Shown: piece by piece, positions 614 through 29,795 of the stretch
Position numbering within the stretch: the stretch's first letter is position 1
Layout: each line of letters starts with the position of its first letter
Source of the DNA: Prevotellaceae bacterium
GTDB taxonomy: Bacteria; Bacteroidota; Bacteroidia; Bacteroidales; Bacteroidaceae
NCBI GenBank assembly: GCA_031262265.1
Contig: JAISIB010000126.1
Coordinates: 1 to 39,379 of the forward strand
Reading direction: 5' to 3'
Length of the DNA stretch: 39,379 nt
The notes under the pieces: generated by a model
Database searches by the model: none
What the model was told of the DNA's origin: nothing
The model's input: the letters and a program-made list of their open reading frames with translations, nothing else
Program-made: the position numbers and the translations under genes

Positions 614-1696
614 CTACAATCCTTCTTCGTTCAACTTATACTCTACCAATGCTCCTTCCGGATCCTGACTAATCCCGTAGAGCGTACCTGTCTCCTCTTC
701 GTAGCCGACCGAACGAAGTGGTATCTCTAATACATAATGCCGAACGGGATTGCCGTCCCAATCATAGACAAGTAAATATTCGCCGTTGTTTTGTAAGCCT
801 AATCCATGGGTAGCCACAGTACGACCGGAATATACCGCATAAACGTACTTGTCGGTACAAGCCACACCCGTAAAACCCTCAATGGTGTTTATGGTAAGAG
901 CATGCGCATAGTCGTTTTCTGAGATACGAACCCTCTTTAATTCAGGCTCTTGATAATCCCATCGTTTCACTTCACGAATGCGATTACCCTCTTCAATTGT
1001 TCCGAAAAATAGGCTACTACCATTACGTGAGGCACTGATTATCTTACGTTCGTCCGGAGATAATATGACAATACTACCCGAGTAAACAAAGCCTAACTCC
1101 CTATTGGGCACATTTTCAAAACTTGGATACCTCGGATAGGTGATAGTGGTAAGTAATGAGTCTCGATTATCATACGTAGCCAACCATGCGTCTCCCTGTA
1201 AGCCCGTTGTGATATAGCCATTAGGTAAAAAACGGACATCAAAAGTACGTTCGGCATCTTTTCCTCTTGCCGGATATGTTTTGTACTTGGATATATAAAG
1301 ATACTTGTCATTCTCGTCAACCGTATAATATTGATTTCTGTTCGTATCATAGATAAACAGCGTATCTCTCCGATCTCTGAATTTAATTGAAGGCAATAGT
1401 TCCCCCGGACCTTGTCCGTACGAAATACCGCGTATCATCGTGCTATCTTTCGTATTGAAACGAACGATAATGCTATCGCGGGATGTTTCATCCCAAATAT
1501 AATATATATTGCCGCGCTTAATCACGCTATAAGGCATTAGGAGATCGTATTTTTCCAGTACCGCATAATTCGATATGTGCAACGAATCTACTGGCGTGTT
1601 GCGGAAATGGTACAGTGTCTTATCCGTGTAGTCCAAAGAATCGCCGCAAGCACTCAAGAAGATGAGTACAATCGTACAAATATATAGCTTTCTCAT
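614..1696 (-). CDS. 6-bladed beta-propeller lipoprotein (BF3164 / DUF5128-like family)
   Basis: ORF 614..1750, trimmed to the internal ATG at 1696. That start gives MRKLYICTIVLIFLSAC|GD, a signal peptide with an LSAC lipobox. Repetitive beta-strand-rich sequence (YYIWD, LFIYD, YLLVYDWDG) resembles the Bacteroides propeller lipoproteins found beside NVEALA genes. Confidence 0.7.
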   Translation of the reverse strand: MRKLYICTIVLIFLSACGDSLDYTDKTLYHFRNTPVDSLHISNYAVLEKYDLLMPYSVIKRGNIYYIWDETSRDSIIVRFNTKDSTMIRGISYGQGPGELLPSIKFRDRRDTLFIYDTNRNQYYTVDENDKYLYISKYKTYPARGKDAERTFDVRFLPNGYITTGLQGDAWLATYDNRDSLLTTITYPRYPSFENVPNRELGFVYSGSIVILSPDERKIISASRNGSSLFFGTIEEGNRIREVKRWDYQEPELKRVRISENDYAHALTINTIEGFTGVACTDKYVYAVYSGRTVATHGLGLQNNGEYLLVYDWDGNPVRHYVLEIPLRSVGYEEETGTLYGISQDPEGALVEYKLNEEGL

Positions 1697-1774
1697 AGGA
1701 TAACTGAGTTGCAAAGTTAGTATAATCAATGGGTGGAGAATTCCACCCATTGATTATACACTAATGACGTTAAG

Positions 1775-2029
1775 TTAATTAAAGTAGTAAAATTTCCCTT
1801 TAATAACAATGTCTTCATTTTGCCATTGATCAGCCGGATAGCGACATTCACCATCTTGATCATTGGCACACATCGGTCCAAAAGTTATCTCCTGTGCCAA
1901 TACTTCCACGTTGGCCAGCGATAAATCACTTAACTCACTGTTTTGTGAGTTGATACCCAAGTTCAAAGCAGCTACTGCCACCAGAACAACAGCCAAAAGG
2001 CCGCTTAATAATTTACTTTTTTTGTTCAT
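1775..2029 (-). CDS. NVEALA-family small secreted or membrane-anchored protein (84 aa)
   Basis: ORF 1775..2062, trimmed to the ATG at 2029 (MNKKSKLLSGLLAVVLVAVAALNLG). A basic N-terminus and hydrophobic segment are followed by LSDLSLANVEVLAQE, a variant of the NVEALA signature. The 37-residue tail that follows holds the only two Cys residues (C-x7-C). Confidence 0.75.
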   Translation of the reverse strand: MNKKSKLLSGLLAVVLVAVAALNLGINSQNSELSDLSLANVEVLAQEITFGPMCANDQDGECRYPADQWQNEDIVIKGKFYYFN

Positions 2030-2064
2030 AAAATAGATTTTTAGAATGTTAATAACGAGCACTA

Positions 2065-2601
2065 TTACTCGTTAAGTTGTTGCGTTATTACTCGTTTGTA
2101 TAACTCCCATACCGAAGGTATGTCTGCCGGATTTCCAATCATTAGTACCTTATTGTCTCTATCCAACAAGAAACATTGATAGGCCGGCTGTGTCGGTAAA
2201 GCATTTCGCTTATTTAATTTTCCTCTTTGATCCATAAAGACAGGATGCTCGAAATATTCTCTGTCAAGCAAGTATTTTACCGTTCGTTGATTCTTCGCTT
2301 GAAAGAAGAACACGAAGCCAACCTTATCACTCAATTGTCGCTTGCTTTCTTCTATCAAGCCCGCCCATACGCCTAAGTTTAACTTACATTTCGTACATCC
2401 CGTAGAATCCACGTAAAACAGTACCTTATACTCTTTTGTCAGCAACGAATCCAATACTCTCGCCGTGTCACCTGTCAGTTCGGGAAAACGAATCTCTTTC
2501 CCCATCCATTCCCGAACGATGGCTTCGGCATCGGTGCGTTGCTTGCTTTGGCAAGCGAACACGCAGCAGAGTATGCAAATTATGAACGGCAGTGCTTTCA
2601 T
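2065..2601 (-). CDS. Thioredoxin-fold (TlpA/AhpC-like) lipoprotein with a C-T-K-C redox motif
   Basis: 178-aa ORF. The signal peptide has a lipobox (CCVFAC|QS). 'YVDSTGCTKCKLNLGVW' is a CxxC motif in a thioredoxin-like context. It is the first gene of a same-strand trio. Confidence 0.7.
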   Translation of the reverse strand: MKALPFIICILCCVFACQSKQRTDAEAIVREWMGKEIRFPELTGDTARVLDSLLTKEYKVLFYVDSTGCTKCKLNLGVWAGLIEESKRQLSDKVGFVFFFQAKNQRTVKYLLDREYFEHPVFMDQRGKLNKRNALPTQPAYQCFLLDRDNKVLMIGNPADIPSVWELYKRVITQQLNE

Positions 2602-2625
2602 GCGTATTCTTTATTTTTCTACTGA

Positions 2626-2633
2626 CAAAAATA
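2626..2633 (-). promoter_or_regulatory. Candidate Bacteroides -7 promoter box (TATTTTTG on the minus strand) for the thioredoxin/NVEALA/propeller cassette
   Basis: The plus strand reads CAAAAATA, the reverse complement of the TAnnTTTG consensus. It sits about 25 nt upstream of the ATG at 2601. Confidence 0.35.
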
Positions 2634-4708: not shown

Positions 4709-6247
4709 ATGGATATGAACAGACGTGATTTTATTAAATCGGGAGGGCTGGCTTTTATCGGCTCATTGGCGGCACCGGCTATCGGTAGCTCGCTGTTGAG
4801 CGGATGCGCAGCCCCGAGTAAGCAGGCAGGCGTGCAGATGGCATTGTCCCACTTTGGCGTTTCCGAAACGCTATTGCGCCAAGTACTGGCAGCCGCATTG
4901 GAAAAAGGCGGCGACTACGCTGATTTGTTTTTTGAACACACGTTCAATAACTCTATCGGCTTGCAAGACGGAGCGGTGAACCGCTGCGGTTCGAATATCG
5001 ACTTCGGTGTAGGCGTGCGCGTATTGGCCGGCGACCGTACCGGTTATGCGTATGTAGAAAACATTACGGCTGATGAAATGCTGAAAGCGGCGCGTACCGC
5101 TGCGCGCATTGCGCAGAGCAATCAGTCGCACCAACCTGTGGCTTTGACGGAGAAAAAGTTGACGCACAACTATTACTCGGTGCAAACGCCTTGGGAGAAC
5201 GTGACCGTTAAAGAGAAGATGCCGTACGTGCAACGTCTCAACGATCAAATATTCTCCCTCGACAAACGCGTACAAAAGGTGAGAGCAAATTTACAAGATC
5301 GCACCTCGCACATTTTCTTTGCGAACTCGGAAGGAGTGATGTATTATGATTACCGCCCGATGGTTGTTCTCAACGCATCGTGCACGATGGAAGAAAACGG
5401 CAAGTATGAAAATGCAGGCGCGGCGCGTTCTTATCAGAAAGGCTTTGAGTTTCTGACGGACGCCGAAGTGGAAACCATTGCGAAAGAAGCGGTAGCGAAC
5501 ACCGCCATCCTATTTGCTGCCATCAAGCCCAAAGGTGGTGAGATGCCGGTAGTCATGGGTTCCGGCGGCTCGGGAATTTTGTTGCACGAGGCTATCGGCC
5601 ATGCGTTTGAGGCTGACTTTAATCGGAAGAACATATCTATTTTCTCCGATCAGTTGAATAAGAAAATCTGCGACGCCCATATCAACGTAATAGATGATGC
5701 GACGATTCCGTTCAATCGCGGTTCGCTCAATATAGACGATGAGGGGATAGACGGACAAAAGACGTACATCGTGAAAGAAGGTGTGCTCACGAGTTATCTA
5801 CACGACCGTATTAGCGCCCACCACTACGGTATTCCGTCAACAGGCAACGGACGTAGAGAATCTTTTCGCAACATGCCGATTCCTCGCATGCGGGCAACGT
5901 ATATGGAAGCGGGTAACATAAAAGAAGCAGATATTATCTCATCGGTCAAACAAGGTATCTTCGTCGACAATTTCACGAACGGACAAGTACAAATCGGTGC
6001 GGGCGATTTCACATTCTTCGTCAAATCCGGTTATTTAATTGAGAATGGGAAGCTAACTCAGCCGATCAAGGACATTAATATCATCGGTAACGGTCCGAAA
6101 GCCTTAGCGGATATTACGATGGTGGGTGATAATCCGAAAATTGACGACGGTTCGTGGACATGCGGTAAAGATGGACAATCTTGTCCCGTGACGTGCGGCA
6201 TGCCGTCGGCTTTGGTTAGCAAACTCACCGTAGGTGGTGAAAGTTGA
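4709..6247 (+). CDS. tldD: TldD-family metalloprotease with a twin-arginine (Tat) signal peptide
   Basis: 512 aa. The N-terminus MDMNRRDFIKSGGLAFIGSLAAPAIG is a Tat motif. HEAIGHAFEAD is the HExxxH zinc site typical of TldD, and the C-terminal GMPSALV region is also typical. Confidence 0.88.
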   Translation: MDMNRRDFIKSGGLAFIGSLAAPAIGSSLLSGCAAPSKQAGVQMALSHFGVSETLLRQVLAAALEKGGDYADLFFEHTFNNSIGLQDGAVNRCGSNIDFGVGVRVLAGDRTGYAYVENITADEMLKAARTAARIAQSNQSHQPVALTEKKLTHNYYSVQTPWENVTVKEKMPYVQRLNDQIFSLDKRVQKVRANLQDRTSHIFFANSEGVMYYDYRPMVVLNASCTMEENGKYENAGAARSYQKGFEFLTDAEVETIAKEAVANTAILFAAIKPKGGEMPVVMGSGGSGILLHEAIGHAFEADFNRKNISIFSDQLNKKICDAHINVIDDATIPFNRGSLNIDDEGIDGQKTYIVKEGVLTSYLHDRISAHHYGIPSTGNGRRESFRNMPIPRMRATYMEAGNIKEADIISSVKQGIFVDNFTNGQVQIGAGDFTFFVKSGYLIENGKLTQPIKDINIIGNGPKALADITMVGDNPKIDDGSWTCGKDGQSCPVTCGMPSALVSKLTVGGES

Positions 6248-6254
6248 TAGGTGA

Positions 6255-7601
6255 ATGTCTCATTTAATAACTTTGAAAACTATGATAGCAAGTACACATA
6301 AAGAATTGGCACAGCGGGCGATGGAATATGCGCTCAAACAAGGGTGCCAAGCAGCTCGGGTAACGTTGTATGCCAACGCGAACACGGCATTTGAACTACG
6401 CAACGGAGAAATAGATCGCCTGCAACAAGCGTCGGAAAACGGGCTAAGCATCGGTTTGTACGTGGATGGTCGCTTTGGCGAGTATTCTACGAATCGTATG
6501 AACGCGCGAGAATTGGAAACCTTTATTAAGCAAGGTATCGAAGCTACGCGCTACTTGGCAGAAGATCCTGCGCGCGTCTTACCGGATCCGTCCAGATATT
6601 ACAAAGGAGGTTTGCCCGATCTGGAACAATTTGACCAAAAAATAGATGCTCTGCTTCCTGATGAAAAGGCCGATATTGCGCGGAAAGCAGCCGAAGAGGC
6701 TATTGGGAAAGACGACCGCATCATTTCGGTAGATTCCTCGTGGAGTGATCGGAAATACGAGTCCTATCGTTTAACGAGCAATGGCTTTGAAGGATCAAGC
6801 CGTCAAACTTCATTTTCCGTGTATGCGGGTGTCAGCATTCGCGGCGAAGGTGAAGCGCGTCCCGAATCCGGTTGGTCGGAGTCTTCGTTGTTTTTCGATA
6901 GCTTACCTACGAAGGACATCGGCACAAAGGCCTTGGAGCGCGTACTGCGTAAGTTGGGACAACGCAAAGTGAAGTCCGGAAAATATACGATGGTGATAGA
7001 TCCACGCGTAGCTACGCAAGTGCTCAGTCCCGTGATGAGTGCGCTCTCCGGCTCGGCGTTGCAGCAGAAAAATTCGTTTCTGATGGATAGAATCGGGCAG
7101 AAAGTGGCGAGCGATAAGTTAACTCTGATCGACGAGCCGCATCTGATTCGTGCGGTGGGTGCTCGTTATTTCGATGCGGAGGGTATTGCTACGCAGCGGA
7201 TACCCGTATTTGAAAACGGCGTGCTCCGGACGTATTACGTAGATACTTACAACGCAAAAAAGATGAACGTGGAACCGACTATTAGCGGTGCGTCCCTGTT
7301 AGTATTGCAGCCGGGAACGAAAAACCTCGATGAATTGGTGAAAAGCGTCAATAAAGGTATTTTTGTAACTGGCTTCAACGGTGGCAACAGCAACAGCTCT
7401 ACCGGCGATTTCTCGTACGGTATCGAAGGATTCCTCATAGAAAACGGCAAGCAGACACAACCTGTCAACGAGATGAACGTCACGGGTAATTTTGTGAAGC
7501 TATGGTCGCAGCTGGCGGAAGTGGGAAATGATCCGCGTCTCAGCTCGTCGTGGCGTATCCCGACGTTGGTATTTGAAAACGTAGATTTCAGCGGCCTTTG
7601 A
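6255..7601 (+). CDS. pmbA: PmbA/TldE-family protein, partner of TldD; no signal peptide visible
   Basis: 448 aa of the TldD/PmbA fold family without the HExxxH motif. The start is 8 nt after the tldD stop. Confidence 0.82.
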   Translation: MSHLITLKTMIASTHKELAQRAMEYALKQGCQAARVTLYANANTAFELRNGEIDRLQQASENGLSIGLYVDGRFGEYSTNRMNARELETFIKQGIEATRYLAEDPARVLPDPSRYYKGGLPDLEQFDQKIDALLPDEKADIARKAAEEAIGKDDRIISVDSSWSDRKYESYRLTSNGFEGSSRQTSFSVYAGVSIRGEGEARPESGWSESSLFFDSLPTKDIGTKALERVLRKLGQRKVKSGKYTMVIDPRVATQVLSPVMSALSGSALQQKNSFLMDRIGQKVASDKLTLIDEPHLIRAVGARYFDAEGIATQRIPVFENGVLRTYYVDTYNAKKMNVEPTISGASLLVLQPGTKNLDELVKSVNKGIFVTGFNGGNSNSSTGDFSYGIEGFLIENGKQTQPVNEMNVTGNFVKLWSQLAEVGNDPRLSSSWRIPTLVFENVDFSGL

Positions 7602-7618: not shown

Positions 7619-7714
7619 CCATGAATTCAGGGACTTAAAATTTACTCGTTCCCGCACAAATTCCGATTATTGCGGCGTCAATTTTCAGAGATTCGAAACA
7701 GTAAAGCAAACTTA

Positions 7715-8242
7715 ATGAATACAGAGGAACACCTGTCATTCGATACGATATACAACCAACTTTACGGCAAAGCCCTGCGTTTTACCATCTCTTACGTCCA
7801 TGATGTAGCGGTAGCGGAAGATATTGTCGCCGATGCCTTGGTTGCACTATGGTTGGAATTGAAAGAGCGGACGATCGACCGTCCCGATGCTTTTTTGCTC
7901 ACTGTTCTTCGCAATCGCTCACTGGATTATTTGAAACATCAAGTAATCCGGACGACAAAACTTACGGAGCGAGCCAAATGGGATGCCGATGAATTGAATA
8001 TGCGTATAGCCTTATTAGAAGCTTGCGACCCGAATGAATTGTTTGCCGCCGATATTCGCGTCATTGTGCAAGATACGCTGCGGAGTTTACCCGCTAAAAC
8101 TCGCCGTATATTCCTGCTTAGTCGACAAGGACACCGGATGCAGGATATAGCGGAGCGTATGAATCTCTCATCGAAAGCCATAGAATACCATCTTAACAGA
8201 GCGATCAAACAATTGCGCCGACATCTGAAAGATTACTTGTAG
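7715..8242 (+). CDS. ECF-type RNA polymerase sigma-70 factor
   Basis: Region 2 (VAEDIVADALVALW) and region 4 helix-turn-helix (MQDIAERMNLSSKAIEYHLNRA). ATG at 7715 is preferred over the TTG at 7670. Confidence 0.85.
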   Translation: MNTEEHLSFDTIYNQLYGKALRFTISYVHDVAVAEDIVADALVALWLELKERTIDRPDAFLLTVLRNRSLDYLKHQVIRTTKLTERAKWDADELNMRIALLEACDPNELFAADIRVIVQDTLRSLPAKTRRIFLLSRQGHRMQDIAERMNLSSKAIEYHLNRAIKQLRRHLKDYL

Positions 8243-8344
8243 ACGGTCGCAACGGCCGCGTATGTGTGTGTAATATCTAACTTAGATAATTTATTTTCAA
8301 GGCGGGAAAATTCAATAGCTGACGTTGTTATTTTAAGCAGCGAG

Positions 8345-8377
8345 GAGGTTATCCGACAGGGTAACCTCATTTTTTTT
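8345..8377 (+). terminator. Hairpin plus T8 tract between the sigma and anti-sigma genes
   Basis: GAGGTTA (8345-8351), loop, TAACCTC (8362-8368), A, then TTTTTTTT (8370-8377). Confidence 0.5.
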
Positions 8378-8438
8378 GCCGGTCGGTTTAGGGTTCTTCT
8401 CCGCTCAGTCGTCTTATACGTATAAAAGGGAAAAATGA

Positions 8439-9365
8439 ATGAATCATACGTTGATTAGGAAATACATCGAGGGGAGTGCTACGCCGGATGAGAAGCGGCA
8501 AGTAATGGAATGGGTGAATGAGAGTTCGGCACACGAGATAGAGTTAAAACAAGTACGAAAGGTGTACGATGTCGCTCTTTGGAATGCGGTGGATAGTGAG
8601 CGGGTGTACGTATCGAAGTACCGCCGATCATGGATGGCGGGCGTGGCTGCAGTTATTGCGTTATTCGCATGTGCGGCAAGTATCTATTTCTATCAACGGG
8701 CATCTGTACCACCGCCTGATCCGGTGATGCAGACCATACAAGTGCCGCCTGGTCAACGCGTGTTGTTGACGTTGGTAGATGAAACGCAGGTGTGGCTGAA
8801 TGCTGGTTCGAGTCTGATATTTCCCAATCGTTTCGGCGATACGAAACGGGAAGTTATTCTCGATGGAGAGGGATATTTTTGCGTAGCAAAGGATGCTAAG
8901 CATCCGTTCGTAGTTCGTACGGCCACTTATGAGGTGACTGCTTTGGGGACGGAATTCAATGTGATGGCTTACGACAAATCAAAGTTGTTCGACGTTGCTT
9001 TGTTAGAAGGAGTAGTGACCGTCGGACGAGCGGATGGCAGTAGCGTCTATCGAATGCAACCGAACGAACGACTCATTGCTACCGGCGGCGCGTTGGAAAC
9101 GGATTCGATTTCCAATTTTGATTTCTTGCTGTGGAAAGACGGTATTATCAGCTTAGACGACGAACCGGTGGAAGATATGATACGAAAGATAGAACTTTAC
9201 TATGATGTGCAGATCGTGGTGCAGAACGAGGCATTTGCGCGACGGAGATATACGGGTAAGTTCCGTACGAAGGATGGGGTAGAGCACATCTTGAAGGTTT
9301 TCCAATTGAACAATGACTTCTGTTATACGAAAGACGATGAGAACAATATTATAACCATACGATGA
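8439..9365 (+). CDS. FecR-family anti-sigma factor / transmembrane sensor
   Basis: 308 aa. N-terminal anti-sigma segment (IRKYIEGSATPDEKRQVMEW), a single TM helix (WMAGVAAVIALFACAASIYFY) and a periplasmic FecR-like domain. Confidence 0.85.
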   Translation: MNHTLIRKYIEGSATPDEKRQVMEWVNESSAHEIELKQVRKVYDVALWNAVDSERVYVSKYRRSWMAGVAAVIALFACAASIYFYQRASVPPPDPVMQTIQVPPGQRVLLTLVDETQVWLNAGSSLIFPNRFGDTKREVILDGEGYFCVAKDAKHPFVVRTATYEVTALGTEFNVMAYDKSKLFDVALLEGVVTVGRADGSSVYRMQPNERLIATGGALETDSISNFDFLLWKDGIISLDDEPVEDMIRKIELYYDVQIVVQNEAFARRRYTGKFRTKDGVEHILKVFQLNNDFCYTKDDENNIITIR

Positions 9366-9518
9366 TTTAAACCGATTATTCATTAATAAAAAAGGGAGGA
9401 CGCGCCTATGGACAGGGTCTGAGAAACACTAAAAAACCGGAACATGCTGCCACATATTCCGGTTGTAAAAGTTCTTTTAGAAACGATAAGTCTAATACAA
9501 ACTTTAAGTCGCAAAGTT

Positions 9519-12500
9519 ATGAAATGTAATTTATTGCAAGAAAAAAATCCTTTGTTTAATCGCTTAGTATTGATTATGCGGTTTACCTTAATTTTCTTTT
9601 TCGTTTGTAGTTTGGGGTTGTACGCAGCGGATATTCGCTCGCAAGAAACCCCTATCTCGCTCAATGTTAAACAATTGTCGATTCTGGATGTATTGAAGAA
9701 CATCGAGAGACAAACTGGCTTCTTATTCGTTTATGATAAGAATGAAATTGATGTCAGCTCACTCGTTGACGTTGAAGCCGATAACGAACAACTACAAGCT
9801 GTACTCGCTTCTCTATTCAAGGGCACGGAAATAGGTTACGCCTTTGAGGGGAAAAATATTATGCTGATGAAGAGTCGCAATGCCGATAAACAAATTCAGC
9901 AACAGCAGATCGGACGCACTATTACCGGAATAGTGCTCGACCAAACAGGCGAAAGTGTAATTGGCGCAAACATCCGTGTGAAAGGCGTGTCCAATGCCGG
10001 CACCATTAGTGACATTGACGGCAATTTCACGTTGAGGGACGTGACAAACAACTCGGTCGTCATAGTGAGCTTCATCGGTTATCGCACGAGAGAGATTACC
10101 GTGGGCAATCAACAGTCGCTGCAAATTATTTTGGACGAAGACACGCAAACCCTTGATGAAGTGGTTGTCGTAGGATACGGCGTTCAGAAGAAAAAACTAC
10201 TTACCGGTGCCAATCTTCAAGTGAAAGGGGATGACATCTTGAAGCGTAATGCTCAGAATCCATTGGATGCGTTGGTCGGCCAATCTCCCGGTGTATTTAT
10301 CTCCCAGTCTTCCGGCCAGCCGGGAGAGGACTTCAAGGTAAATATCCGTGGTTTAGGTACAGTAGGTGACGCGACGCCGCTCTATATCGTGGATGGTATG
10401 CAAACGAGCAGCATTGCGTATATCAATCCGTCTGAGATAGAATCAATAGATGTATTGAAGGATGCCGCTTCGGCAGCTATTTATGGAGCGCGCGCAGCCA
10501 ACGGCGTCGTGTTGATCACTACCAAGCAAGGTAAGCCAGGCAAGGCGGTCATTTCGTACGATGGTTTTGTCGGTTTTCAAAGTCCGTCGAAATTGGCAGA
10601 AATGCTGAACGCACAAGACTATGCGATGATACAGAACGAAGCAGCCGTCAACTCGGGTAAACAAGCTTATAATTGGCAAAATGAGTTCGGTATTAACGTA
10701 CCTGCCTTAGGCATGGGAACCAATTGGCTGGACGAATTGGTGGAAAAGAATGCGCTGACACAAAACCACGTGCTGGCCGTGAATGGCGGAACCAATCAAA
10801 GCGTATATTCTCTCTCGCTGGCATACAGCGCACAAGAGGGCGTCATCGGCGGCTCTAAATTTTCTAATAGTGACCGCTACACCTTTCGCGCCAATAGCGA
10901 ACACAAGTTGCATGGCGACTTGATTAAGGTCGGCAATCACCTATCTTATACATACCGGACACGAAACGGTATTAGCAACGGAGGTCAGTATGATAATCTG
11001 ATACACGATGCGTTGCAGGCTACGCCTTTCTTACCGGTCTATGATGCGGATGGTAATTATGCGCAAGCCACAGCGTGGTTTCCGGAAGAGAGTAATCCGA
11101 TGGGATCGCTGTATTATAAAAATCAGAATGCAACGCAGACCAACAGTTTCTTGGGTGACGTCTATATTGAGGTACAACCGATAAAGGGGTTAAAATGGAA
11201 GAGTTCGTTCGGATTGGATTATACTAATTACACCTATCGCAAGTATCTTCCCGTCTATCAATTGAGTTCGACGGACATGAATCAAATGGACTACGTGGAG
11301 CAGCGTGCCAATAAGTCTTATAGCTGGTCTTGGGAGAATACGGTCAATTACGATTTCAAACTCAATGAGCTTCATTCGTTCAATGTCTTGTTGGGAATGC
11401 AAGCGCAACGTTCCGGCGGAGAAAGTCTATATGCATTGAAACGTGCGTTGACGTTCTCGGATTTCGATCACGCGTGGATTTCTAATGCGACCAATGTGGA
11501 TACGGGTCAAATCTCTGTGTCGGGTGCTCCCAATGATGTGGATAACTTGCTGTCTTATTTCGGCCGTGTGACGTATGATTACAACGAGACTTATATGGGA
11601 ACGTTGACGGTGCGTGCTGATGCTTCATCTCGCTTTGGTGAAAACAATCGTTGGGGTTATTTCCCTTCGGCTTCGGCAGGTTGGGTAATTACGAATGAAC
11701 CGTTCATGGAATCCACACGAGACTGGTTGGAATTCTTAAAACTGAGAGTAAGTTGGGGACAGAATGGTAATCAGCGAATTAGCACCTATTCTTATTTGGC
11801 TACGATTGCTTCTAATGCCAATTATGAATTCGGACCGAACGACAACACCAATACAAATTATGTCGGCACTTATCAGAACCGTATGCCGAATCCGGATGTT
11901 AAGTGGGAAACTTCCGAGCAGTTTGACGCAGGGTTCGATGCTCGTTTCTTCGGAGGCAAGCTGAATGCAGCGTTGGACTATTATTCGAAAACTACGAAGG
12001 ACTGGTTGATACAAGTTCCTGTTCCGGCTGTACTCGGTGCGCCTTCCAATCCGTTTGTCAACGGCGGTAGCGTGCGTAATAGCGGACTTGAGTTAAGTTT
12101 GAGTTATCGTGACTATGTGGGCGAACTGAGTTATTCGATTAGCGGAAATTTAGCTTATAATAAGAACGAAGTATTGGATATTCCAAACGACGAAGGTATT
12201 ATTCACGGTCCTCAGGATGTCCTTTTCAAAGGTATGCAAGAGATGTACCGTGCGGAAGAAGGTTATCCGATCGGTTACTTTTGGGGATTGGATATGTTAG
12301 GGGTTTTCCAGACGCAGGAAGAAATCAATAATTACAAGAATGCGGAAGGGAAAGTTATTCAGCCTACCGCTTTATCCGGCGACGTAAAATTTGCCGACTA
12401 CAATGGCGACGGCCAAATTGATATGAGTGATAACATTGACTTAGGCAATCCGTATCCGGATATTACGATGGGATTATCCGTTTCGTTGGCTTACAAAGGA

Positions 12501-12947
12501 TTTGACTTCTACTTATCCAGCAATGGGTCGTTCGGACATCAAGTTGCACAAGCCTATCGTCCGATGGAGCGTTTCCAATATAATTATCCGACGAAAATAT
12601 TGGGACGTTGGACGGGTGCTGGCAGTAGCAATACGATGCCGCGTGTAACGCAGGGCGATGAACCGAATGGGAACTGGCGATATTTGTCACAGCTTTATGT
12701 AGAAAATGCCGATTTCTGGCGCATTAACAACATTACGTTGGGCTATGACTTCAATAAACTGATACCTAACTCTCCGTTGGGGCAGTTGCGCCTCTATGCG
12801 ACCGTACAGAATTTGTTGACGGTGACCGGTTATTCAGGAATGGACCCCGATGTTGGTTGGAGTTCTTCGTCGTGGGGTTCGGGTGTAGATATAGGTTTTT
12901 ATCCCCGTCCGAGAACCGTATTGTTCGGTGTAAACGTAAAATTCTAA
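9519..12947 (+). CDS. SusC/RagA-family TonB-dependent transporter with an N-terminal STN signalling domain
   Basis: A signal peptide is followed by an STN-like domain (LNVKQLSILDVLKNIERQTGFLFVYD). Next come a CarboxypepD_reg-like domain (ITGIVLDQTGESVIGANIRVKG) and a TonB box/plug (DEVVVVGYG). The C-terminal barrel ends in ...VNVKF. ATG at 9519 is chosen within ORF 9444..12947. Confidence 0.9.
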   Translation: MKCNLLQEKNPLFNRLVLIMRFTLIFFFVCSLGLYAADIRSQETPISLNVKQLSILDVLKNIERQTGFLFVYDKNEIDVSSLVDVEADNEQLQAVLASLFKGTEIGYAFEGKNIMLMKSRNADKQIQQQQIGRTITGIVLDQTGESVIGANIRVKGVSNAGTISDIDGNFTLRDVTNNSVVIVSFIGYRTREITVGNQQSLQIILDEDTQTLDEVVVVGYGVQKKKLLTGANLQVKGDDILKRNAQNPLDALVGQSPGVFISQSSGQPGEDFKVNIRGLGTVGDATPLYIVDGMQTSSIAYINPSEIESIDVLKDAASAAIYGARAANGVVLITTKQGKPGKAVISYDGFVGFQSPSKLAEMLNAQDYAMIQNEAAVNSGKQAYNWQNEFGINVPALGMGTNWLDELVEKNALTQNHVLAVNGGTNQSVYSLSLAYSAQEGVIGGSKFSNSDRYTFRANSEHKLHGDLIKVGNHLSYTYRTRNGISNGGQYDNLIHDALQATPFLPVYDADGNYAQATAWFPEESNPMGSLYYKNQNATQTNSFLGDVYIEVQPIKGLKWKSSFGLDYTNYTYRKYLPVYQLSSTDMNQMDYVEQRANKSYSWSWENTVNYDFKLNELHSFNVLLGMQAQRSGGESLYALKRALTFSDFDHAWISNATNVDTGQISVSGAPNDVDNLLSYFGRVTYDYNETYMGTLTVRADASSRFGENNRWGYFPSASAGWVITNEPFMESTRDWLEFLKLRVSWGQNGNQRISTYSYLATIASNANYEFGPNDNTNTNYVGTYQNRMPNPDVKWETSEQFDAGFDARFFGGKLNAALDYYSKTTKDWLIQVPVPAVLGAPSNPFVNGGSVRNSGLELSLSYRDYVGELSYSISGNLAYNKNEVLDIPNDEGIIHGPQDVLFKGMQEMYRAEEGYPIGYFWGLDMLGVFQTQEEINNYKNAEGKVIQPTALSGDVKFADYNGDGQIDMSDNIDLGNPYPDITMGLSVSLAYKGFDFYLSSNGSFGHQVAQAYRPMERFQYNYPTKILGRWTGAGSSNTMPRVTQGDEPNGNWRYLSQLYVENADFWRINNITLGYDFNKLIPNSPLGQLRLYATVQNLLTVTGYSGMDPDVGWSSSSWGSGVDIGFYPRPRTVLFGVNVKF

Positions 12948-12965
12948 TCTAAAAAAGAGAACAAC

Positions 12966-14570
12966 ATGAAAAGATATTTTCAAAAATCAGTTCAATGTTT
13001 GCTGCTTTGCGGGCTTTTGAGCGCGTGCAGCAATAGTTTTCTCGACAGTGTACCAATGACGCAAAAGACCAATGCGGGATACTATCAAATGCCGCAGGAC
13101 GCGTGGGAGACACTTGTAGGCTGTTACAATCGTTTACCCGGAGGTTATGGCGACTTCTTCTTTATAGCCAATATCGCTTCGGACGAATGTTACGGCGGCG
13201 GCGGTTATACCGATGCTTTCGGTAATCAGGTTTGGGACGAATGGACGGATTACAATGACTTGGAAATAAATCGCTACACATGGAGCGGACGTTTCTACGC
13301 GGCTATTCGTCGTTGCCACGTTTTAGTGGAGACATTAGATCAGATAGATTGGGGAGGTGACACAAATTTACGCAATCGCTATGAAGCGGAAGCTCGTATG
13401 TTGCGCGCCCATTTCTATTTCGAGATGCAACGCAACTTCGGACACATTCCGCTCATTACATCGTCGCAAGCGGAGTTGATACCGCAAACGGATCCCGATG
13501 AAGTTTACGCATATATTATCGAAGACTTGAAGTTTGCTATTGAGAACTTACCGAGTGTTAGCTTCCAAAGTACTCCGGAAGCCGAGTTCGGACGCGTAAC
13601 CAAATGGGCGGCCGAAGGATATCTTGCTCGCGTATATTTGTTTTATACGGGCTATTACGGCAAATCGGAAGCTCCCGGAGTTACGAAGCAGGAAGTAATC
13701 AACTATTTGGAAGACTGTATTCAAAATAGCGGTCATGCATTGGTACCACGCTATGGTTCGCTGTGGCCGTGGTCTATGATGGAAAACTATCACAAAGACC
13801 CGACGTTGAGTTATGCCGGCGAATACAATCCGGAAATTATGTTCTGCATCCGTCATTCTACGATGCGTTCCAATCAATACCAACGTTATACCGGCATGCG
13901 TGGCATCGCTAATGCTGGAGATTATGAGCCGTTCTATCCGGGTTGGGGTATGGCTACGATTACGCCGAAGTGTTTCAATAGTTTCGCGGAAGGAGATACG
14001 CGCCGCTACGCCTCTATCATCGATTGCGAAGGCGAAGGGATTCCCAATACGGGCAACGACCAACGCGAATTTACGGGCTATTTCCAAAAGAAATATCAGA
14101 CGTTGACGGATCCGAACGATAAGACGAGGTCTTATCCGCAGACGGTGGGCGGTAGCAGTTGGCAGTCCGAACCGCAAGACGCGATTCTCATGCGCTATTC
14201 CGATGTGTTGCTGATGGCTGCTGAGTTGGAATTGGAAACGAATCAGGCTAAGTCACAAACGTATCTGAATATGGTGCGCGACCGTGCTTTTGAAGACACC
14301 GATCATCGGGTGACGGCTACTGCGCAATCTATTTTCGATGAACGAGGCTTTGAGTTTGTATTCGAGGGTATCCGCTATTACGACGTACTTCGACAAGGTC
14401 TGACCAAAGCGAAGGAAATTCTCGACGTAACTAATGCTCCCGTGCTGAACGGTGGGCAACCGGGTGTGAAGAACATCAATTTCTCGTTGGAAAAAGCCGG
14501 TTTGTTGCGTATCCCGCAAAGCCAGATATTAATTTCCGAAGGGATGTTAGTGCAAAATCCGGGCTGGTAG
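12966..14570 (+). CDS. SusD/RagB-family nutrient-binding outer-membrane lipoprotein
   Basis: Lipobox LLSAC|S. SusD-like helical repeat sequence. Located immediately downstream of the SusC-like gene. Confidence 0.9.
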   Translation: MKRYFQKSVQCLLLCGLLSACSNSFLDSVPMTQKTNAGYYQMPQDAWETLVGCYNRLPGGYGDFFFIANIASDECYGGGGYTDAFGNQVWDEWTDYNDLEINRYTWSGRFYAAIRRCHVLVETLDQIDWGGDTNLRNRYEAEARMLRAHFYFEMQRNFGHIPLITSSQAELIPQTDPDEVYAYIIEDLKFAIENLPSVSFQSTPEAEFGRVTKWAAEGYLARVYLFYTGYYGKSEAPGVTKQEVINYLEDCIQNSGHALVPRYGSLWPWSMMENYHKDPTLSYAGEYNPEIMFCIRHSTMRSNQYQRYTGMRGIANAGDYEPFYPGWGMATITPKCFNSFAEGDTRRYASIIDCEGEGIPNTGNDQREFTGYFQKKYQTLTDPNDKTRSYPQTVGGSSWQSEPQDAILMRYSDVLLMAAELELETNQAKSQTYLNMVRDRAFEDTDHRVTATAQSIFDERGFEFVFEGIRYYDVLRQGLTKAKEILDVTNAPVLNGGQPGVKNINFSLEKAGLLRIPQSQILISEGMLVQNPGW

Positions 14571-14624
14571 TTATCTTTGACGTGCTTTTTCAAAAGAATA
14601 TGTATCACTAAACAATTTAATGTA

Positions 14625-16346
14625 ATGAAGAAACCCCTCTTTGTCGTTCTGACATTTTTGTTGGGCTGCAATCTGATGCTCGAAGCCCAATCTGCCGCGC
14701 CGACATTGCGTAAGCAGGGTACCGCTACGCAATTGATCGTAGAAGGGAAACCATTCCTGATGCTGGCCGGCGAGTTGCACAACTCCTCCACCTCAAGCAT
14801 TGAGTACATGGAGCCTATTTGGCCGCAAATGGCTGCCAAGAATTTGAACACCGTACTAGCCGTCGTTGCTTGGGAGCAGTTGGAACCCGTAGAAGGGAGG
14901 TTTGATTTCACGTTAGTCGATGCGATGATTCGCGGCGCGGAGAAATCTAATCTCAAACTGGTGCTCCTTTGGTTCGGTAGCTGGAAAAACGGTGGCTCTA
15001 TCTATATGCCTTCGTGGGTGAAGAAAGACTACAAACGATTCCCGCGTGCGCAAAATGAGAAGGGCGAAAGTATCGAGATTCTTTCCACGCTGTCGGAGAA
15101 CTCTATGAAAGCGGACGCCAAAGCTTTCGCCGCACTCATGAAGCACCTGAAAGAGTTTGATAAAAACTACACGGTACTGATGGTACAAGTGGAAAACGAG
15201 ATGGGTATCCTGAATACCGTGCGCGATTTTTCACCGGCGGCCAACGCTGCTTTTAACGGAGAGATCCCGGCGGATCTTTCGGCGTTCTTGTCGAAGAATA
15301 AGAACAACTTGGGTGCTGAACTGAGTAAAGTATGGAAAGCGAACGGCTCGAAGACGAAAGGAACGTGGGAAGAAGTATTCGGACGTAGCACGGTCAACCA
15401 CAGTGATTGGCGGGCGATGTCGTTCTATACGGAAGAGCTTTTTATGGCTTACCACTATGCAAAATATGTGGGCTACATAGCCGCCGAAGGAAAGAAGGAA
15501 TACGATATTCCGTTGTACGTCAACGCATGGCTGAAAGGACCGGATTATCCGTGGACGGGACGTTTCCCGGGCGGTGGCCCGCTCCCGCAAGTCATGGACA
15601 TGTGGCATTGCGGCGCACCGGCCATTGATTTCCTTTCGCCGGATATTTATCTGCCTATATTTACCGAGGTGGTAGCCAACTACGATCGTTTAGGTAACGC
15701 TATCTTCGTGCCCGAAACACGGGGCGGTGCGATCGGTGCATCGCGTCTGTTGTGGGCACTCGGTGAGCATAACCTGATCGGGTTCTCTCCGTTCGGCATA
15801 GATGGCCGTCGCGGTGCGCCTGCCCCGACGCCTGTGCCTACGGGTGCGCCGGTGACGGGCACCAATGCGCCACGTCCGGTACAAACCGTGGCGGGCGATC
15901 CGTTGGCCGACACTTACGCATTACTTGAAGGCATGACGCCGATGATTACGGCGCATCAGGGCAAAGGAACGATACGCGGTATGTTTATTGATCAGGACAA
16001 TCCGACGCAAAGTTTTGAGCTGGGCGACTATATCGTGACAGCTGATGCGTCCTCGCCGCGTACGATTGAAGCAAATCCGGCCGGCGGGTTGATTATCAAC
16101 CTCGGCAAAGACGAATATATAGTGATTGCGAGAGGTCTCAACGTACGATTTGCGCCTAAGGTACCCGGCAACGAGCCTTTGATAGGTATCGACAAAGTCT
16201 ATGAAGGCGTATTTGACAACGCCGGCAATTGGAAACCCGGCCGCTTACTGAACGGCGATGAAACGCATTGCAGTACATTCTCGGGCACCGGTCTCAAAAT
16301 GCCCGGTCTCAGCATTCAGCGTATTACGCTTTATCGGTATAAATAA
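14625..16346 (+). CDS. Glycoside hydrolase, clan GH-A TIM barrel (GH35/GH42-like N-terminal domain with a DUF5597-type C-terminal domain), putative beta-galactosidase
   Basis: Signal peptide MKKPLFVVLTFLLGCNLMLEA. LIVEGKPFLMLAGELHNSS and VQVENEMG (candidate acid/base NE) motifs. A Pro/Ala/Thr-rich linker sits near residues 405-440 of the track ORF. The family call is from memory only. Confidence 0.7.
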   Translation: MKKPLFVVLTFLLGCNLMLEAQSAAPTLRKQGTATQLIVEGKPFLMLAGELHNSSTSSIEYMEPIWPQMAAKNLNTVLAVVAWEQLEPVEGRFDFTLVDAMIRGAEKSNLKLVLLWFGSWKNGGSIYMPSWVKKDYKRFPRAQNEKGESIEILSTLSENSMKADAKAFAALMKHLKEFDKNYTVLMVQVENEMGILNTVRDFSPAANAAFNGEIPADLSAFLSKNKNNLGAELSKVWKANGSKTKGTWEEVFGRSTVNHSDWRAMSFYTEELFMAYHYAKYVGYIAAEGKKEYDIPLYVNAWLKGPDYPWTGRFPGGGPLPQVMDMWHCGAPAIDFLSPDIYLPIFTEVVANYDRLGNAIFVPETRGGAIGASRLLWALGEHNLIGFSPFGIDGRRGAPAPTPVPTGAPVTGTNAPRPVQTVAGDPLADTYALLEGMTPMITAHQGKGTIRGMFIDQDNPTQSFELGDYIVTADASSPRTIEANPAGGLIINLGKDEYIVIARGLNVRFAPKVPGNEPLIGIDKVYEGVFDNAGNWKPGRLLNGDETHCSTFSGTGLKMPGLSIQRITLYRYK

Positions 16347-16772: not shown

Positions 16773-17390
16773 ATGAAACAGTTAGGATTATTATTCGTAT
16801 TGACGTTCGTTACTCAGTCGGTATTTGCTCAACTCAGTGACAATGATTATAGGATAGAGACTACGACAAATAATAGTAGTAACCTATCTCCCTCACAAAC
16901 ATCGGTCAACTATTACGAAAAGCCGAAGACGTTTTATGAAAACGGTTATACGTATCAATGCGATGTAGATGACGCGCAACTTGTTACTTTGTATAGTAAG
17001 CCCTCCTCACTCGTGTATGTGGATCCTGTATATAAAGCGACAGGAAGGCTCTATAATGGAGAAGTGAAACTATTTGCGGAAGAAACATGGACGAAACCTT
17101 TATGTTATTCCATAGTTCGCAATGCTTTTCCCACAGCTGCTAAACAGAGAGTACGAGGTGTAAACTTTTCCATAGTTATGTGCATAAATTCTGATACAGG
17201 AAAAGTTATGGAAGTTTATTTTCAGTTTACGAATTATAGTCCTTATACTACGATTCCTGTTTCTGTATATCGTAAGATAGAGACGGAAATTAAGCAGAAA
17301 GTATGGTTTACTCCTACTGCCGAAGGGGCGAAACTCAATTATATTATGCTCGCGTGGCGACAGAATCCGGAAGACGTACTGCATGATTAG
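16773..17390 (+). CDS. Hypothetical secreted protein (205 aa), low-GC orphan
   Basis: Signal peptide MKQLGLLFVLTFVTQSVFA|Q. No family recognised. Markedly more AT-rich than the flanking genes. Confidence 0.55.
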   Translation: MKQLGLLFVLTFVTQSVFAQLSDNDYRIETTTNNSSNLSPSQTSVNYYEKPKTFYENGYTYQCDVDDAQLVTLYSKPSSLVYVDPVYKATGRLYNGEVKLFAEETWTKPLCYSIVRNAFPTAAKQRVRGVNFSIVMCINSDTGKVMEVYFQFTNYSPYTTIPVSVYRKIETEIKQKVWFTPTAEGAKLNYIMLAWRQNPEDVLHD

Positions 17391-28739: not shown

Positions 28740-28775
28740 AAAATAGTGGGTGTTAGATTATACGGTTTTATTCGT

Positions 28776-29171
28776 TTATTGTTCTTTTATTTTGATGCCA
28801 TTGACGTCTCGGGTGAAAATATATGAGCCGCCGCGCGGACTAAGATCGAAAGGTGAGATGAGATCCGTATGTTGATCGACGATTAAGATAGTATTGTCTT
28901 CTCCCAACCTATGTGTCTCGATGGAACGAGGCGTTGTGGCGATGCGGGCATCCAGTAGCAAACTGTCATTTAGATAAACGGCAATGCTGTCGCCCGCGAA
29001 TCCGTCGGAAAGCGTGAACGTGTAAGTCTCGTGATACTGCGTCGTGCCGGAAAGTTTGCTGTTCATTTGCATACTTATCAGTACGAAAAGAACGACAACG
29101 GCTATAACGGCGAATCCAAGTATGCCGTTTCCGATCATAAAAGCTTTATTTGTATTCAAACGATGCGCCAT
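28776..29171 (-). CDS. Hypothetical single-pass membrane protein (131 aa)
   Basis: One TM helix (GILGFAVIAVVVLFVLI) followed by a beta-rich domain of about 90 aa. Lies 37 nt upstream of GH3 on the same strand. No family recognised. Confidence 0.5.
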   Translation of the reverse strand: MAHRLNTNKAFMIGNGILGFAVIAVVVLFVLISMQMNSKLSGTTQYHETYTFTLSDGFAGDSIAVYLNDSLLLDARIATTPRSIETHRLGEDNTILIVDQHTDLISPFDLSPRGGSYIFTRDVNGIKIKEQ

Positions 29172-29304
29172 ATTCTTCTTTTTTTAGGGCAAAGTAAGGG
29201 AAAAACACCCAATATTTATCAGAAGAACGCCTAAAAACTGTCGAAAGACAGAATTTCCCCGAAACTCTACCTAAAACTATCCTATCGACCCCGCAAAAGG
29301 GGCT

Positions 29305-29312
29305 TACATTTG
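29305..29312 (+). promoter_or_regulatory. Candidate -7 promoter box (TACATTTG) facing the GCTAA-repeat region
   Basis: Matches TAnnTTTG. No plus-strand ORF lies downstream before the hairpin at 29614. Confidence 0.35.
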
Positions 29313-29386
29313 TAACGTCAATCAGAAAGACAGATGCTTTAACCGTAGTAACAAAGAATAAAAAGTTGATAATACAAATTGCCGAG

Positions 29387-29588
29387 AACCAATTATTGAA
29401 AGAACGAAATGCTAAAACAGAAAGTAAATGCTAAGACCTAAGAGAACGCTAAACCCTAACAGACGAAAACCAATTATTAAAGAATTTGCTAAAAACCAAT
29501 TATGACGAAAAGAAAAATGCTAACGACCTAAAATGTAAGAGAAAGGCTAAAACCGACGAAATGCTAAGACCTAAGAGATGCTAAACCG
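29387..29588. repeat. Degenerate direct-repeat array (GCTAA x8, longer duplicated blocks, AACCAATTAT x3)
   Basis: - GCTAA starts at 29411, 29430, 29448, 29488, 29519, 29546, 29563 and 29580.
- AAATGCTAAGACCTAAGAGA is perfectly duplicated at 29426-29445 and 29559-29578.
- ACGAAATGCTAA occurs at 29404 and 29556.
- AACCAATTAT(T) occurs at 29387, 29468 and 29494. Confidence 0.85.
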
Positions 29589-29613
29589 ATTGTAGAAAGA
29601 AATTCGCAACCTT

Positions 29614-29663
29614 AAACGCAGCGCAGCACGACTGACAATAATCAATCGTGCTGCGCTGCGTTT
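29614..29663. terminator. 18-bp perfect hairpin with A/T flanks
   Basis: AAACGCAGCGCAGCACGA (29614-29631), a 14-nt loop, then TCGTGCTGCGCTGCGTTT (29646-29663). Confidence 0.6.
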
Positions 29664-29702
29664 GTCCTGTCCGTCGGTAGAATAAATAGCGCGTAAGTAA
29701 GC

Positions 29703-29746
29703 AAAATATCCGGCTCTGAAAATCTGTTTTCAGAGCCGGATATTTT
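29703..29746 (-). terminator. 20-bp perfect hairpin, terminator of the M64 peptidase gene
   Basis: AAAATATCCGGCTCTGAAAA, TCTG loop, then TTTTCAGAGCCGGATATTTT. It lies 50 nt beyond the stop at 29796. Confidence 0.7.
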
Positions 29747-29795
29747 ATTTACAAGGTTTGAAAATTTACTCTTCCGGTAGGATAATAAAGCGATG

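Follow-up and report, generated by a model that had tools for sequence, protein, structure and literature searches.

The window analysed here, a 39,379-nt stretch of a Prevotellaceae genome (contig JAISIB010000126.1), carries at one end three genes that we call T, N and P, encoding a thioredoxin-fold lipoprotein, a small protein of the NVEALA family and a β-propeller lipoprotein, respectively. We judge the chances to be about even that this cassette opens an NVEALA locus, a multi-gene Bacteroidota system making exported, disulfide-bonded peptides. The system is widespread in Bacteroidota and unannotated, and has the look of a toxin or signal system based on peptides that has not been described; at the most general level, an exported disulfide peptide with accessory genes, it is of a known kind. 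An earlier note on this DNA, made from the sequence alone, had described T, N and P as three same-strand genes, and these are real and all on the minus strand. The note had also treated them as a three-gene system, which our comparisons replace with a larger one, and it mentioned neither the hairpin between N and P nor a fourth co-oriented gene that starts at 597. The features are as follows.

2601-2065, minus strand: T gene, 178-aa thioredoxin-fold CxxC lipoprotein (open reading frame (ORF) call)
2029-1775, minus strand: N gene, predicted NVEALA-family pre-pro-peptide of 84 aa, stop codon included in the coordinates (PF14055)
1895-2029, minus strand: leader of N, residues 1-45 (conservation across 141 leaders and motif position)
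1895-1912, minus strand: NVEVLA motif of N, end of the pro-region
1778-1894, minus strand: variable tail of N, residues 46-84 (tail comparison)
1720-1759, no strand: 18-bp stem-loop directly 3' of the N gene (z = -6.3)
1699-614, minus strand: P gene, 360-aa six-bladed NHL-type β-propeller lipoprotein (PF15869)
597-1, minus strand: partial Wzy_C-like gene, first 199 codons of an O-antigen-ligase-like polytopic membrane protein (translation)
2626-2633, minus strand: candidate -7 box TATTTTTG, 25 nt upstream of the T start (TAnnTTTG)
1712-1719, minus strand: second -7-like box TAACTTTG, past the hairpin and just ahead of the P start (TAnnTTTG; weak alone)

N has the layout of an exported precursor with two cysteines confined to its tail, as the earlier note had read it. 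The N-terminus is basic and hydrophobic (MNKKSK and a hydrophobic stretch, then LSDLSLANVEVLA, then QE), and NVEVLA occupies residues 40-45 of the 84. The leader thus consists of a Sec-type signal (MNKKSK plus LLSGLLAVVLVAVAAL), a candidate canonical cleavage site INS↓Q and a pro-region ending in N-V-E-V-L-A, and is followed by a tail of 39 residues, QEITFGPMCANDQDGECRYPADQWQNEDIVIKGKFYYFN, with a net charge of -4 and a single C-x7-C pair formed by C54 and C62 (C-ANDQDGE-C), the only cysteines of the protein. The NVEALA identity, for which a profile check had been proposed beforehand, was confirmed above the curated cut-off of PF14055 (29.1 bits against 27, residues 6-62), and a family-leader profile that we built matched N with E = 3e-19. 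A word-indexed protein search with N returned only N itself. An exhaustive HMMER search for NVEALA proteins yielded 120 representative clusters which, together with copies derived from the loci described below, make up the 152 distinct proteins on which our family statistics rest; position-specific conservation of the leader was computed from 141 leaders.

Across these proteins a constant leader is joined to a variable tail. The last 43 residues of the leaders share a mean pairwise identity of 54%, whereas the tails share 19.5%, which is the random level (shuffled baseline, 17.7%). The leader consensus reads MKKKILGGIAxLAIAAVAA(F/W)NVNLNSQxxxLSDxSLANVEALA, with a boundary that is close to invariant (N at -6 in 100%, E at -4 in 99%, A at -3 in 95%, L at -2 in 99% and A at -1 in 99%); V at -3, as in the NVEVLA of N, is found in 3% of members. 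Directly past the boundary, residue +1 is Q in 37% of the proteins (against 2.8% Q across tails) and never P, and residue +2 is E in 47%. Cysteine makes up 9.0% of tail residues compared with 0.2% of leader residues; it occurs in every tail (152 of 152) and in even number in 126 (83%). The first cysteine lies about 9-10 residues past A-L-A, and the spacing between the first two has its mode at 6-7 residues (65 of 152 tails), N itself having 7. Paralogous N genes within one locus (L003 and L028) have leaders that are 91-100% identical, with unrelated tails (~28%) and adjacent propellers at ~25%. The earlier proposal of a leader/core boundary at the NVEALA motif is therefore well supported by comparison, and NVEALA proteins show what, judged from their sequences, appears to be the pattern of pre-pro-peptides: a constant handle for export and processing fused to a hypervariable, disulfide-framed product.

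Two further observations concern the family as such. A tail sub-type, EIxxGPxC..C.Y.W...GxFY, recurs (P0005, P0015, P0020, P0083, P0100, P0108 and L056). Small Cys-rich ORFs with degenerate motifs (SAIEALS, REIEVLA and INVGALD) lie beside propellers at L030:4403-4669, L030:5845-6105 and L034:8661-8888; as Pfam misses them, the family must be larger than PF14055 detects.

The three genes are linked well beyond the window. A full-length NVEALA alignment had no conserved stretch usable for a genome scan, and an alignment of leaders only was used instead, which led to 29 genomic loci from Tannerella, Prevotellaceae, Dysgonomonadaceae, Parabacteroides, Proteiniphilum, Parapedobacter and unclassified Bacteroidia. 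A propeller gene is the next gene downstream, on the same strand and within 600 nt, for 33 of the 35 N genes with downstream sequence, and the arrangement of N and P in the window (75 nt apart, same strand) matches this usual layout. By the same counting the gap between T and N is 35 nt, as the earlier note had it, and its figure of 78 nt for the gap between N and P is off by a trivial amount. T homologues were found in 17 of the 29 loci, in the order T-N-P or N-P-T. When T was used as the seed, all eight gene neighbourhoods retrieved contained propellers and a small Cys-rich ORF, five contained Peptidase_S26 and Wzy_C genes, and four contained genes for an adaptor and a resistance-nodulation-division (RND) pump. 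Seeding with P gave 79 metagenomic loci, of which 33 had N and 22 had T. Co-localisation of the three families, which the earlier note had proposed to check in gene neighbourhoods, is conserved and strong in the searches seeded with N, T and P.

These loci often contain more than T, N and P. A membrane protein combining Wzy_C with tetratricopeptide repeats (TPR) is encoded in nine NVEALA loci (full-length relatives match PF04932), and a paralogue of signal peptidase I (S26), scoring above the TIGR02227 cut-off, is also found in nine, its gene often adjoining the Wzy_C gene or overlapping with it. Genes for an adaptor, an RND pump and an outer-membrane factor recur, as do those for a transglutaminase-like lipoprotein (eight loci), a second membrane-anchored CxxC protein and DUF4221. 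Two-component genes stand beside 4-5 loci, a minority, and L034 has a divergent histidine kinase and response regulator. In the window, the partial fourth gene, whose ATG at 597 lies 16 nt past the P stop and which is cut by the end of the window and contig, matches the profile of the Wzy_C and TPR proteins from the loci. The resulting order T-N-P-Wzy is that of L016, and N-P-T-Wzy occurs in L001. The Wzy_C-like gene precedes the adaptor and RND genes in other loci, and the rest of the window locus, if any, lies past the contig end; minimal T-N-P cassettes that are free of S26, RND and two-component genes also occur (L031 and L036).

Comparison of loci also separates what is constant from what varies. 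The T protein of L031 is 68% identical to that of the window, with an unrelated tail and an unrelated propeller and in a chromosomal neighbourhood that the two do not share. As far as sequence identity indicates, T and the leader are the constant parts of the system, and the tail and P the variable ones.

Other features of the loci deserve mention. The full-length Wzy_C relatives carry their TPR repeats at the C terminus, and their genes are often translationally coupled to the signal peptidase I paralogue. The O-glycosylation motif of Bacteroides is D-(S/T)-(A/I/L/V/M/T). We considered O-glycosylation of the leader as a simple role for Wzy_C and rejected it, since by inspection the motif is not in the leader consensus, which reads S-D-x-S-L. 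Some 2 kb upstream of a complete T-N-propeller-S26-Wzy-adaptor locus there is a gene for a tyrosine recombinase (Arm-DNA-bind_5, Phage_int_SAM_5; L032:6815-7897 and L033:228-1310), which hints at mobility or invertible control.

T is a lipoprotein with the signal MKALPFIICILCCVFAC (ending CVFAC), a lipobox cysteine at C17 and the active-site motif C69-T-K-C72. Domain profiles hardly detect it: its matches to Redoxin (E = 0.028, 14.7 bits against a cut-off of 26.6) and to the NCBIfam model StoA_CxxC (E = 7e-7, 29.3 bits against 210) fall below the cut-offs, and sequence searches of the PDB gave noise for T alone and no significant match for a profile of 70 sequences. The 103 homologues of T are all named 'hypothetical' or 'DUF1573', none has a precomputed thioredoxin-type Pfam domain, and many members of the family have a C-terminal DUF1573 Ig-like domain. 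Among 70 homologues, C69 and C72 are invariant and C17 and C143 nearly so. An AlphaFold2 model built from these 70 is confident (predicted local distance difference test (pLDDT) 92.2, predicted template modelling score 0.85) and places the CxxC motif, residues 69-72, ahead of a helix at 76-89; its closest folds in the PDB are StoA, ResA, DsbE/CcmG and Bacteroides thiol-disulfide oxidoreductases (Foldseek probability 1.0, E = 3e-6 to 1e-4). The family of T is thus an unannotated branch of the thioredoxin fold that Pfam, NCBIfam and PDB profiles fail to detect by sequence. The earlier description of T as a thioredoxin-fold lipoprotein with a C-T-K-C motif is upheld by this ResA/StoA/CcmG-type model and by the invariant CxxC, and its reading as a disulfide enzyme gains support from the predicted extracytoplasmic type of fold, as far as computation allows.

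In comparison with the TlpA, ResA, StoA and CcmG oxidoreductases, T is alike in fold, in the placement of CxxC before the first helix and in being a membrane- or lipid-anchored extracytoplasmic protein, but it differs in having no significant sequence match to any solved structure, an additional near-invariant Cys143 and, in many members, DUF1573. This third cysteine (window 2173-2175) lies in the segment YQC-FLLD, and the position at which the cis-proline loop would be expected by comparison with ResA reads Y141-Q142-C143. C143 might serve as a resolving cysteine or stand in for the cis-proline.

P, like T, is a lipoprotein, with the lipobox LSAC followed by GDSLDYTD, and it matches the TolB-like six-blade family PF15869 (E = 1.7e-23, 83.8 bits against a cut-off of 29.2), so the propeller lipoprotein of the earlier note stands. 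A word-indexed search with P found one homologue, at 32% identity; a single-sequence search against solved structures gave no match, and a structure model from the two-sequence alignment is poor (pLDDT 43.5; 23 strands). A profile of 40 propellers from the loci, which are 12-21% identical to P, is more informative. It matches the 'putative exported protein' of PDB entry 4RAA (E = 3e-27) as well as the NHL domains of TRIM2, TRIM3, TRIM71, Thin and Brat. Little is conserved among the propellers beyond the lipobox cysteine and a GxGPxE motif, a degree of sequence conservation that fits a binding platform better than an enzyme. A propeller of the glutaminyl-cyclase or amidating-lyase type was considered and rejected, as no such profile or PDB match was obtained.

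Known NHL propellers (4RAA, PF15869, PF17170 and TRIM-NHL) resemble P through these profile matches, and their NHL domains are binding platforms; the propellers of NVEALA loci differ in being extremely divergent and in that each has a small peptide gene as its partner. NHLRC2 and SOQ1 are fusions of thioredoxin-like with NHL domains (PMC6107167; bioRxiv 10.1101/2021.03.16.435614), and fusions of this type appear as weak NHL matches of the locus-propeller profile. Because the two modules are fused there, T and P may be expected to cooperate, although in NVEALA loci they are two separate lipoproteins. Some loci have tandem arrays of 3-5 divergent propeller genes with no peptide genes between them (L038, L045, L048, L050, L051, L035:4625-9849 and L009:7962-14603), an organisation reminiscent, by analogy, of orphan immunity gene arrays.

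The hairpin between N and P has a perfect 18-bp stem and is a candidate terminator or attenuator. A strong stem-loop was found 3' of N in 20 of 26 N-to-P junctions of other loci (median z = -6.2), and was absent at P-to-P, P-to-S26 and P-to-T junctions in the same comparison. In lantibiotic and class II bacteriocin operons an attenuator hairpin directly follows the structural gene for the precursor. The window hairpin is alike in being a strong stem-loop placed after a small precursor gene and before accessory genes, and this analogy suggests that the peptide message may be made in excess; it differs in having no clear U-tract and in being followed by a second promoter-like box, and is thus a candidate attenuator only. 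The earlier note had placed all three genes behind one -7 box. A TAnnTTTG box is indeed present 5' of T, but the motif is common in the window (37 observed, 26 expected), making the box at 2633-2626 only a candidate, and a single promoter for T, N and P is not established because the TAACTTTG box at 1719-1712 directly follows the hairpin, just upstream of P.

From these sequence features, folds and linkages we infer a series of biochemical steps, from cleavage of the peptide and formation of its disulfide, with the redox direction of T, to what the propeller does and a toxin or signal activity. N, with the n- and h-regions visible in its sequence, would be made as a pre-pro-peptide and leave the cytoplasm through Sec. 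Its pro-region, LSDxSLANVEALA in the family, would be the handle for a shared machinery, and a type-I signal peptidase would cut after A-L-A. This step is proposed because A or V stands at -3, A at -1 and P never at +1, because Q is enriched at +1 in line with the Q-rule, and because an S26 paralogue recurs. The dedicated paralogue would be the cutter in many loci, and in the window either a copy past the contig end or the housekeeping enzyme would serve. Q follows ~71% of signal peptidase I sites in Bacteroidetes, the Q-rule (PMC5837995); under this rule, the cut would expose Q46, which may become pyroglutamate.

T, facing the periplasm, would then form or isomerise the C54-C62 disulfide, as its fold and linkage suggest, and a dedicated T would be needed because Bacteroides are without general Dsb machinery. 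The product, a 39-residue acidic looped peptide, would be bound by P, which appears to diverge along with the tail. Immunity or sequestration for the producer ranks as the likeliest role of P, followed by that of a folding template or carrier. The case for immunity is circumstantial, made up of 1:1 downstream adjacency, joint divergence and the peptide-free propeller arrays. The hairpin after N would keep the peptide transcript abundant relative to the downstream genes. In complete loci, the co-occurring Wzy_C/TPR protein, the pump of adaptor, RND protein and outer-membrane factor, and the two-component system would complete modification, export and control.

A bolder version, which we consider doubtful, takes NVEALA loci to be a phylum-wide class of Gram-negative peptide weapons or communication molecules. 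Conotoxin-like hypervariable peptides on one pro-region would be released at N-V-E-A-L-A by the S26 paralogue, oxidised by a private T, possibly modified by a Wzy_C-type ligase, neutralised or presented by a cognate propeller and exported by the RND pump. If this were true, the peptide-free propeller arrays would be collections of acquired immunity genes.

Among known systems, the bacteroidetocins (class IIf, Bacteroidales) are alike in being small, secreted, strain-variable Cys peptides with a dedicated thiol oxidoreductase gene in the locus, which is required for activity, a requirement explained by the absence of general disulfide machinery (PMC6671954). They differ in having a 15-16-aa double-glycine leader, an ATP-binding cassette (ABC) exporter with a peptidase domain, a five-helix membrane protein and a cationic peptide, and in having no propeller partner. 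NVEALA peptides, in contrast, have a Sec-type signal and an A-x-A boundary, are mostly anionic and have no ABC-type ATPase nearby. Similar in precursor organisation are Sec-dependent pre-pro disulfide peptides such as the heat-stable enterotoxins of E. coli, and the conotoxin superfamilies, whose precursors have three parts: a signal, a conserved pro-region and a short Cys-rich mature peptide. The enterotoxins are oxidised in the periplasm (conotoxins in the endoplasmic reticulum) and then exported by a TolC-type tripartite pump, and conotoxins combine a conserved leader with a hypervariable mature region on a Cys framework. The likeness to NVEALA precursors is one of organisation, not of homology, and we know of no dedicated oxidoreductase lipoprotein, 1:1 propeller partner gene, Wzy_C gene or S26 gene in either of these systems. 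None of the nearest known systems (bacteroidetocins, Sec-dependent pre-pro disulfide peptides and ResA-type oxidoreductases) includes a 1:1 propeller partner, a Wzy_C/TPR protein or a signal peptidase paralogue.

Several observations weigh against a matured and exported peptide. The A-L-A motif lies ~20 residues past the hydrophobic core, beyond the normal distance for signal peptidase I, and a more canonical candidate site, xNS↓Q (Q in 61%), lies upstream of it; the latter may be the first, canonical cut, A-L-A then being a pro-peptide site. AVA↓A is a third candidate site. Tail net charge is negative in 124 of 152 proteins, unlike typical membrane-active bacteriocins, and the nearest folds to T (ResA, StoA and CcmG) are reductases, not oxidases, as are most of the known enzymes of that group. 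The dependence between N and P is asymmetric, N being almost always with P and many P being without N: only 33 of the 107 full-length propellers of the P-seeded loci have N directly upstream, and 32 have another propeller there, so that the propeller family is broader than the peptide family. Tails and propellers showed no rank correlation over 406 pairs (Spearman ~0), nor were window-like tails enriched 5' of window-like propellers (3 of 18 compared with 24 of 152), and we do not claim co-evolution of tail and P beyond the within-locus and L031 observations. The window cassette has no S26, RND or two-component genes in the available sequence, which ends with the contig inside the Wzy_C-like gene. 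Literature searches by the word NVEALA, the Pfam accessions and the domain names found no paper describing the system and none containing 'NVEALA'.

Part of this evidence would suit an N that stays uncleaved at NVEALA, as a single-pass signal-anchor protein of the inner membrane in which LSDxSLANVEALA is a protein-protein contact helix and the Cys-rich ectodomain joins the propeller lipoprotein in a stable complex of the envelope, such as a sensor, a receptor or a structural module. The hydrophobic core of the leader, at ~16 residues, is long for a signal peptide; the distance of the motif from the membrane, ~20 residues, is not that of a typical signal peptidase I site; the propellers show no conserved catalytic residues and have the look of binding platforms; and several loci are flanked by genes for a divergent histidine kinase and response regulator. 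We nevertheless think this unlikely, if a serious contender, given that A-x-A, Q at +1 and the exclusion of P at +1 fit a cleavage site, that signal peptidase I paralogues and efflux pumps recur in the loci, that secreted pro-peptides show just such a combination of an invariant boundary and tails diverged to the random level, and that the terminator-like hairpin after N suggests high expression of the peptide alone. It is likewise rather improbable, in our estimate, that maturation proceeds as proposed but with the propeller as a substrate-specific folding or presentation adaptor to a shared T (a split thioredoxin-NHL fusion), the product being a signal for the adjacent two-component system and no toxin. 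The existence of NHLRC2 and SOQ1, the presence of one T per several N-P pairs in a locus, the two-component genes beside 4-5 loci and in L034, and the anionic peptides speak for such an adaptor, but T is absent from ~40% of the N-seeded loci within the sequence covered, long peptide-free propeller arrays are hard to square with dedicated folding adaptors, and most loci have no two-component genes.

The earlier note had likened the NVEALA boundary to double-glycine leaders, and in a double-glycine-type system, or one making ribosomally synthesized and post-translationally modified peptides (RiPPs), the NVEALA region would be a cytoplasmic leader for a peptidase-domain ABC exporter or a modifying enzyme. 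Such a system is very improbable. Although LS..(S)L...EAL resembles LS..EL..I.GG leaders, and GG occurs within 8 residues of the motif in 36 of 152 tails, the N-terminus is of the Sec type and the boundary is A-x-A, often before Q. No ABC-type ATPase (Walker A plus LSGGQ) and no radical S-adenosylmethionine (radical-SAM) motif protein (CxxxCxxC) were found among the called genes of the 29 loci, nor any ABC-type ATPase or such motif protein in the eight Pfam-annotated T-seeded contexts. Pfam annotation of the locus contexts shows thioredoxin-like, S26, Wzy_C, transglutaminase-like, RND and propeller genes only, with no RiPP-modifying enzyme (radical SAM, YcaO or lanthipeptide synthetase) beside the precursor, and a disulfide by itself would not qualify a cluster as a RiPP one. 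Locus content thus contradicts the double-glycine, ABC and radical-SAM readings, and as a mechanism the analogy falls. Chance adjacency or a spurious small ORF, for which the marginal Pfam score might speak, has a negligible probability in view of the family-profile match of N, the 33 of 35 adjacencies of N to P, and the independent T- and P-seeded searches that gave the same gene set.

A peptide-maturation system of this kind would link NVEALA and six-bladed propeller genes, which are abundant in Bacteroidales and have no assigned function, with a thioredoxin-fold family, a signal peptidase paralogue, a Wzy_C/TPR protein and an efflux pump. It predicts that cleavage occurs at a defined site, that the N-terminus is pyroglutamate or acidic, that one specific disulfide is formed and that each peptide is bound by its cognate propeller. 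Should the peptides prove to be toxins or signals, they would be new and very diverse molecules for strain-level competition or communication in gut and termite-gut communities, as well as a natural library of small disulfide-constrained peptides. In the annotation of B. thetaiotaomicron VPI-5482, BT0662 is an O-antigen ligase family protein, BT0663 is hypothetical, BT0664 is a six-bladed propeller, BT0667 is lepB and BT0669 is an RND adaptor (PMC10434189); the expression changes of BT0662-BT0669 in that study were not significant. As this region has the same composition as NVEALA loci, the hypothesis is testable in a standard, genetically tractable organism.

Within the window, the cassette is moderately AT-rich (41% GC compared with 47% for the whole window), no second copy of it is present, and the flanks are ordinary Bacteroidales chromosome (folP, cdaA, tldD/pmbA, a SusC/SusD locus and mannan-utilisation genes). 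Scans of the window with Rfam and for tRNAs gave no match, and a generic sigma-70 promoter and terminator scan was uninformative. The 473-nt intergenic region upstream of T, between T and folP, has 29% GC and contains a 14-bp inverted repeat, ATGACAAAGCCGGA / TCCGGCTTTGTTAT, with an 11-nt loop at 2919-2957; it has no match in Rfam and might act as a terminator or belong to a small RNA element.

The remaining observations concern genes elsewhere in the window. A TldD/PmbA peptidase pair lies at 4709-7601 (plus strand), 2 kb from the cassette and on the opposite strand, and no link of this pair to the peptide cassette was found in other loci; its TldD has a twin-arginine-like signal and a lipobox (MDMNRRDFIKSGG…LLSGC) and appears to be exported. 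Positions 7670-16346 (plus strand) encode an extracytoplasmic function (ECF) sigma factor, a FecR-type anti-sigma factor, a SusC-like receptor with an STN domain, SusD and a GH35/GH42-like enzyme with DUF5597, a polysaccharide utilisation locus with trans-envelope signalling. Low-GC patches (~40-42%) occur at 16773-17390 (plus strand), where there is a DUF5043 gene, and at 28500-30000, where an unannotated 131-aa ORF (28776-29171) adjoins an M64 peptidase gene. Between 17436 and 28739 (minus strand) lie genes for mannan and mannooligosaccharide use: GH26, GH5, GH130, an N-acylglucosamine 2-epimerase, an MFS_2 transporter, acetyl esterases and GH3.

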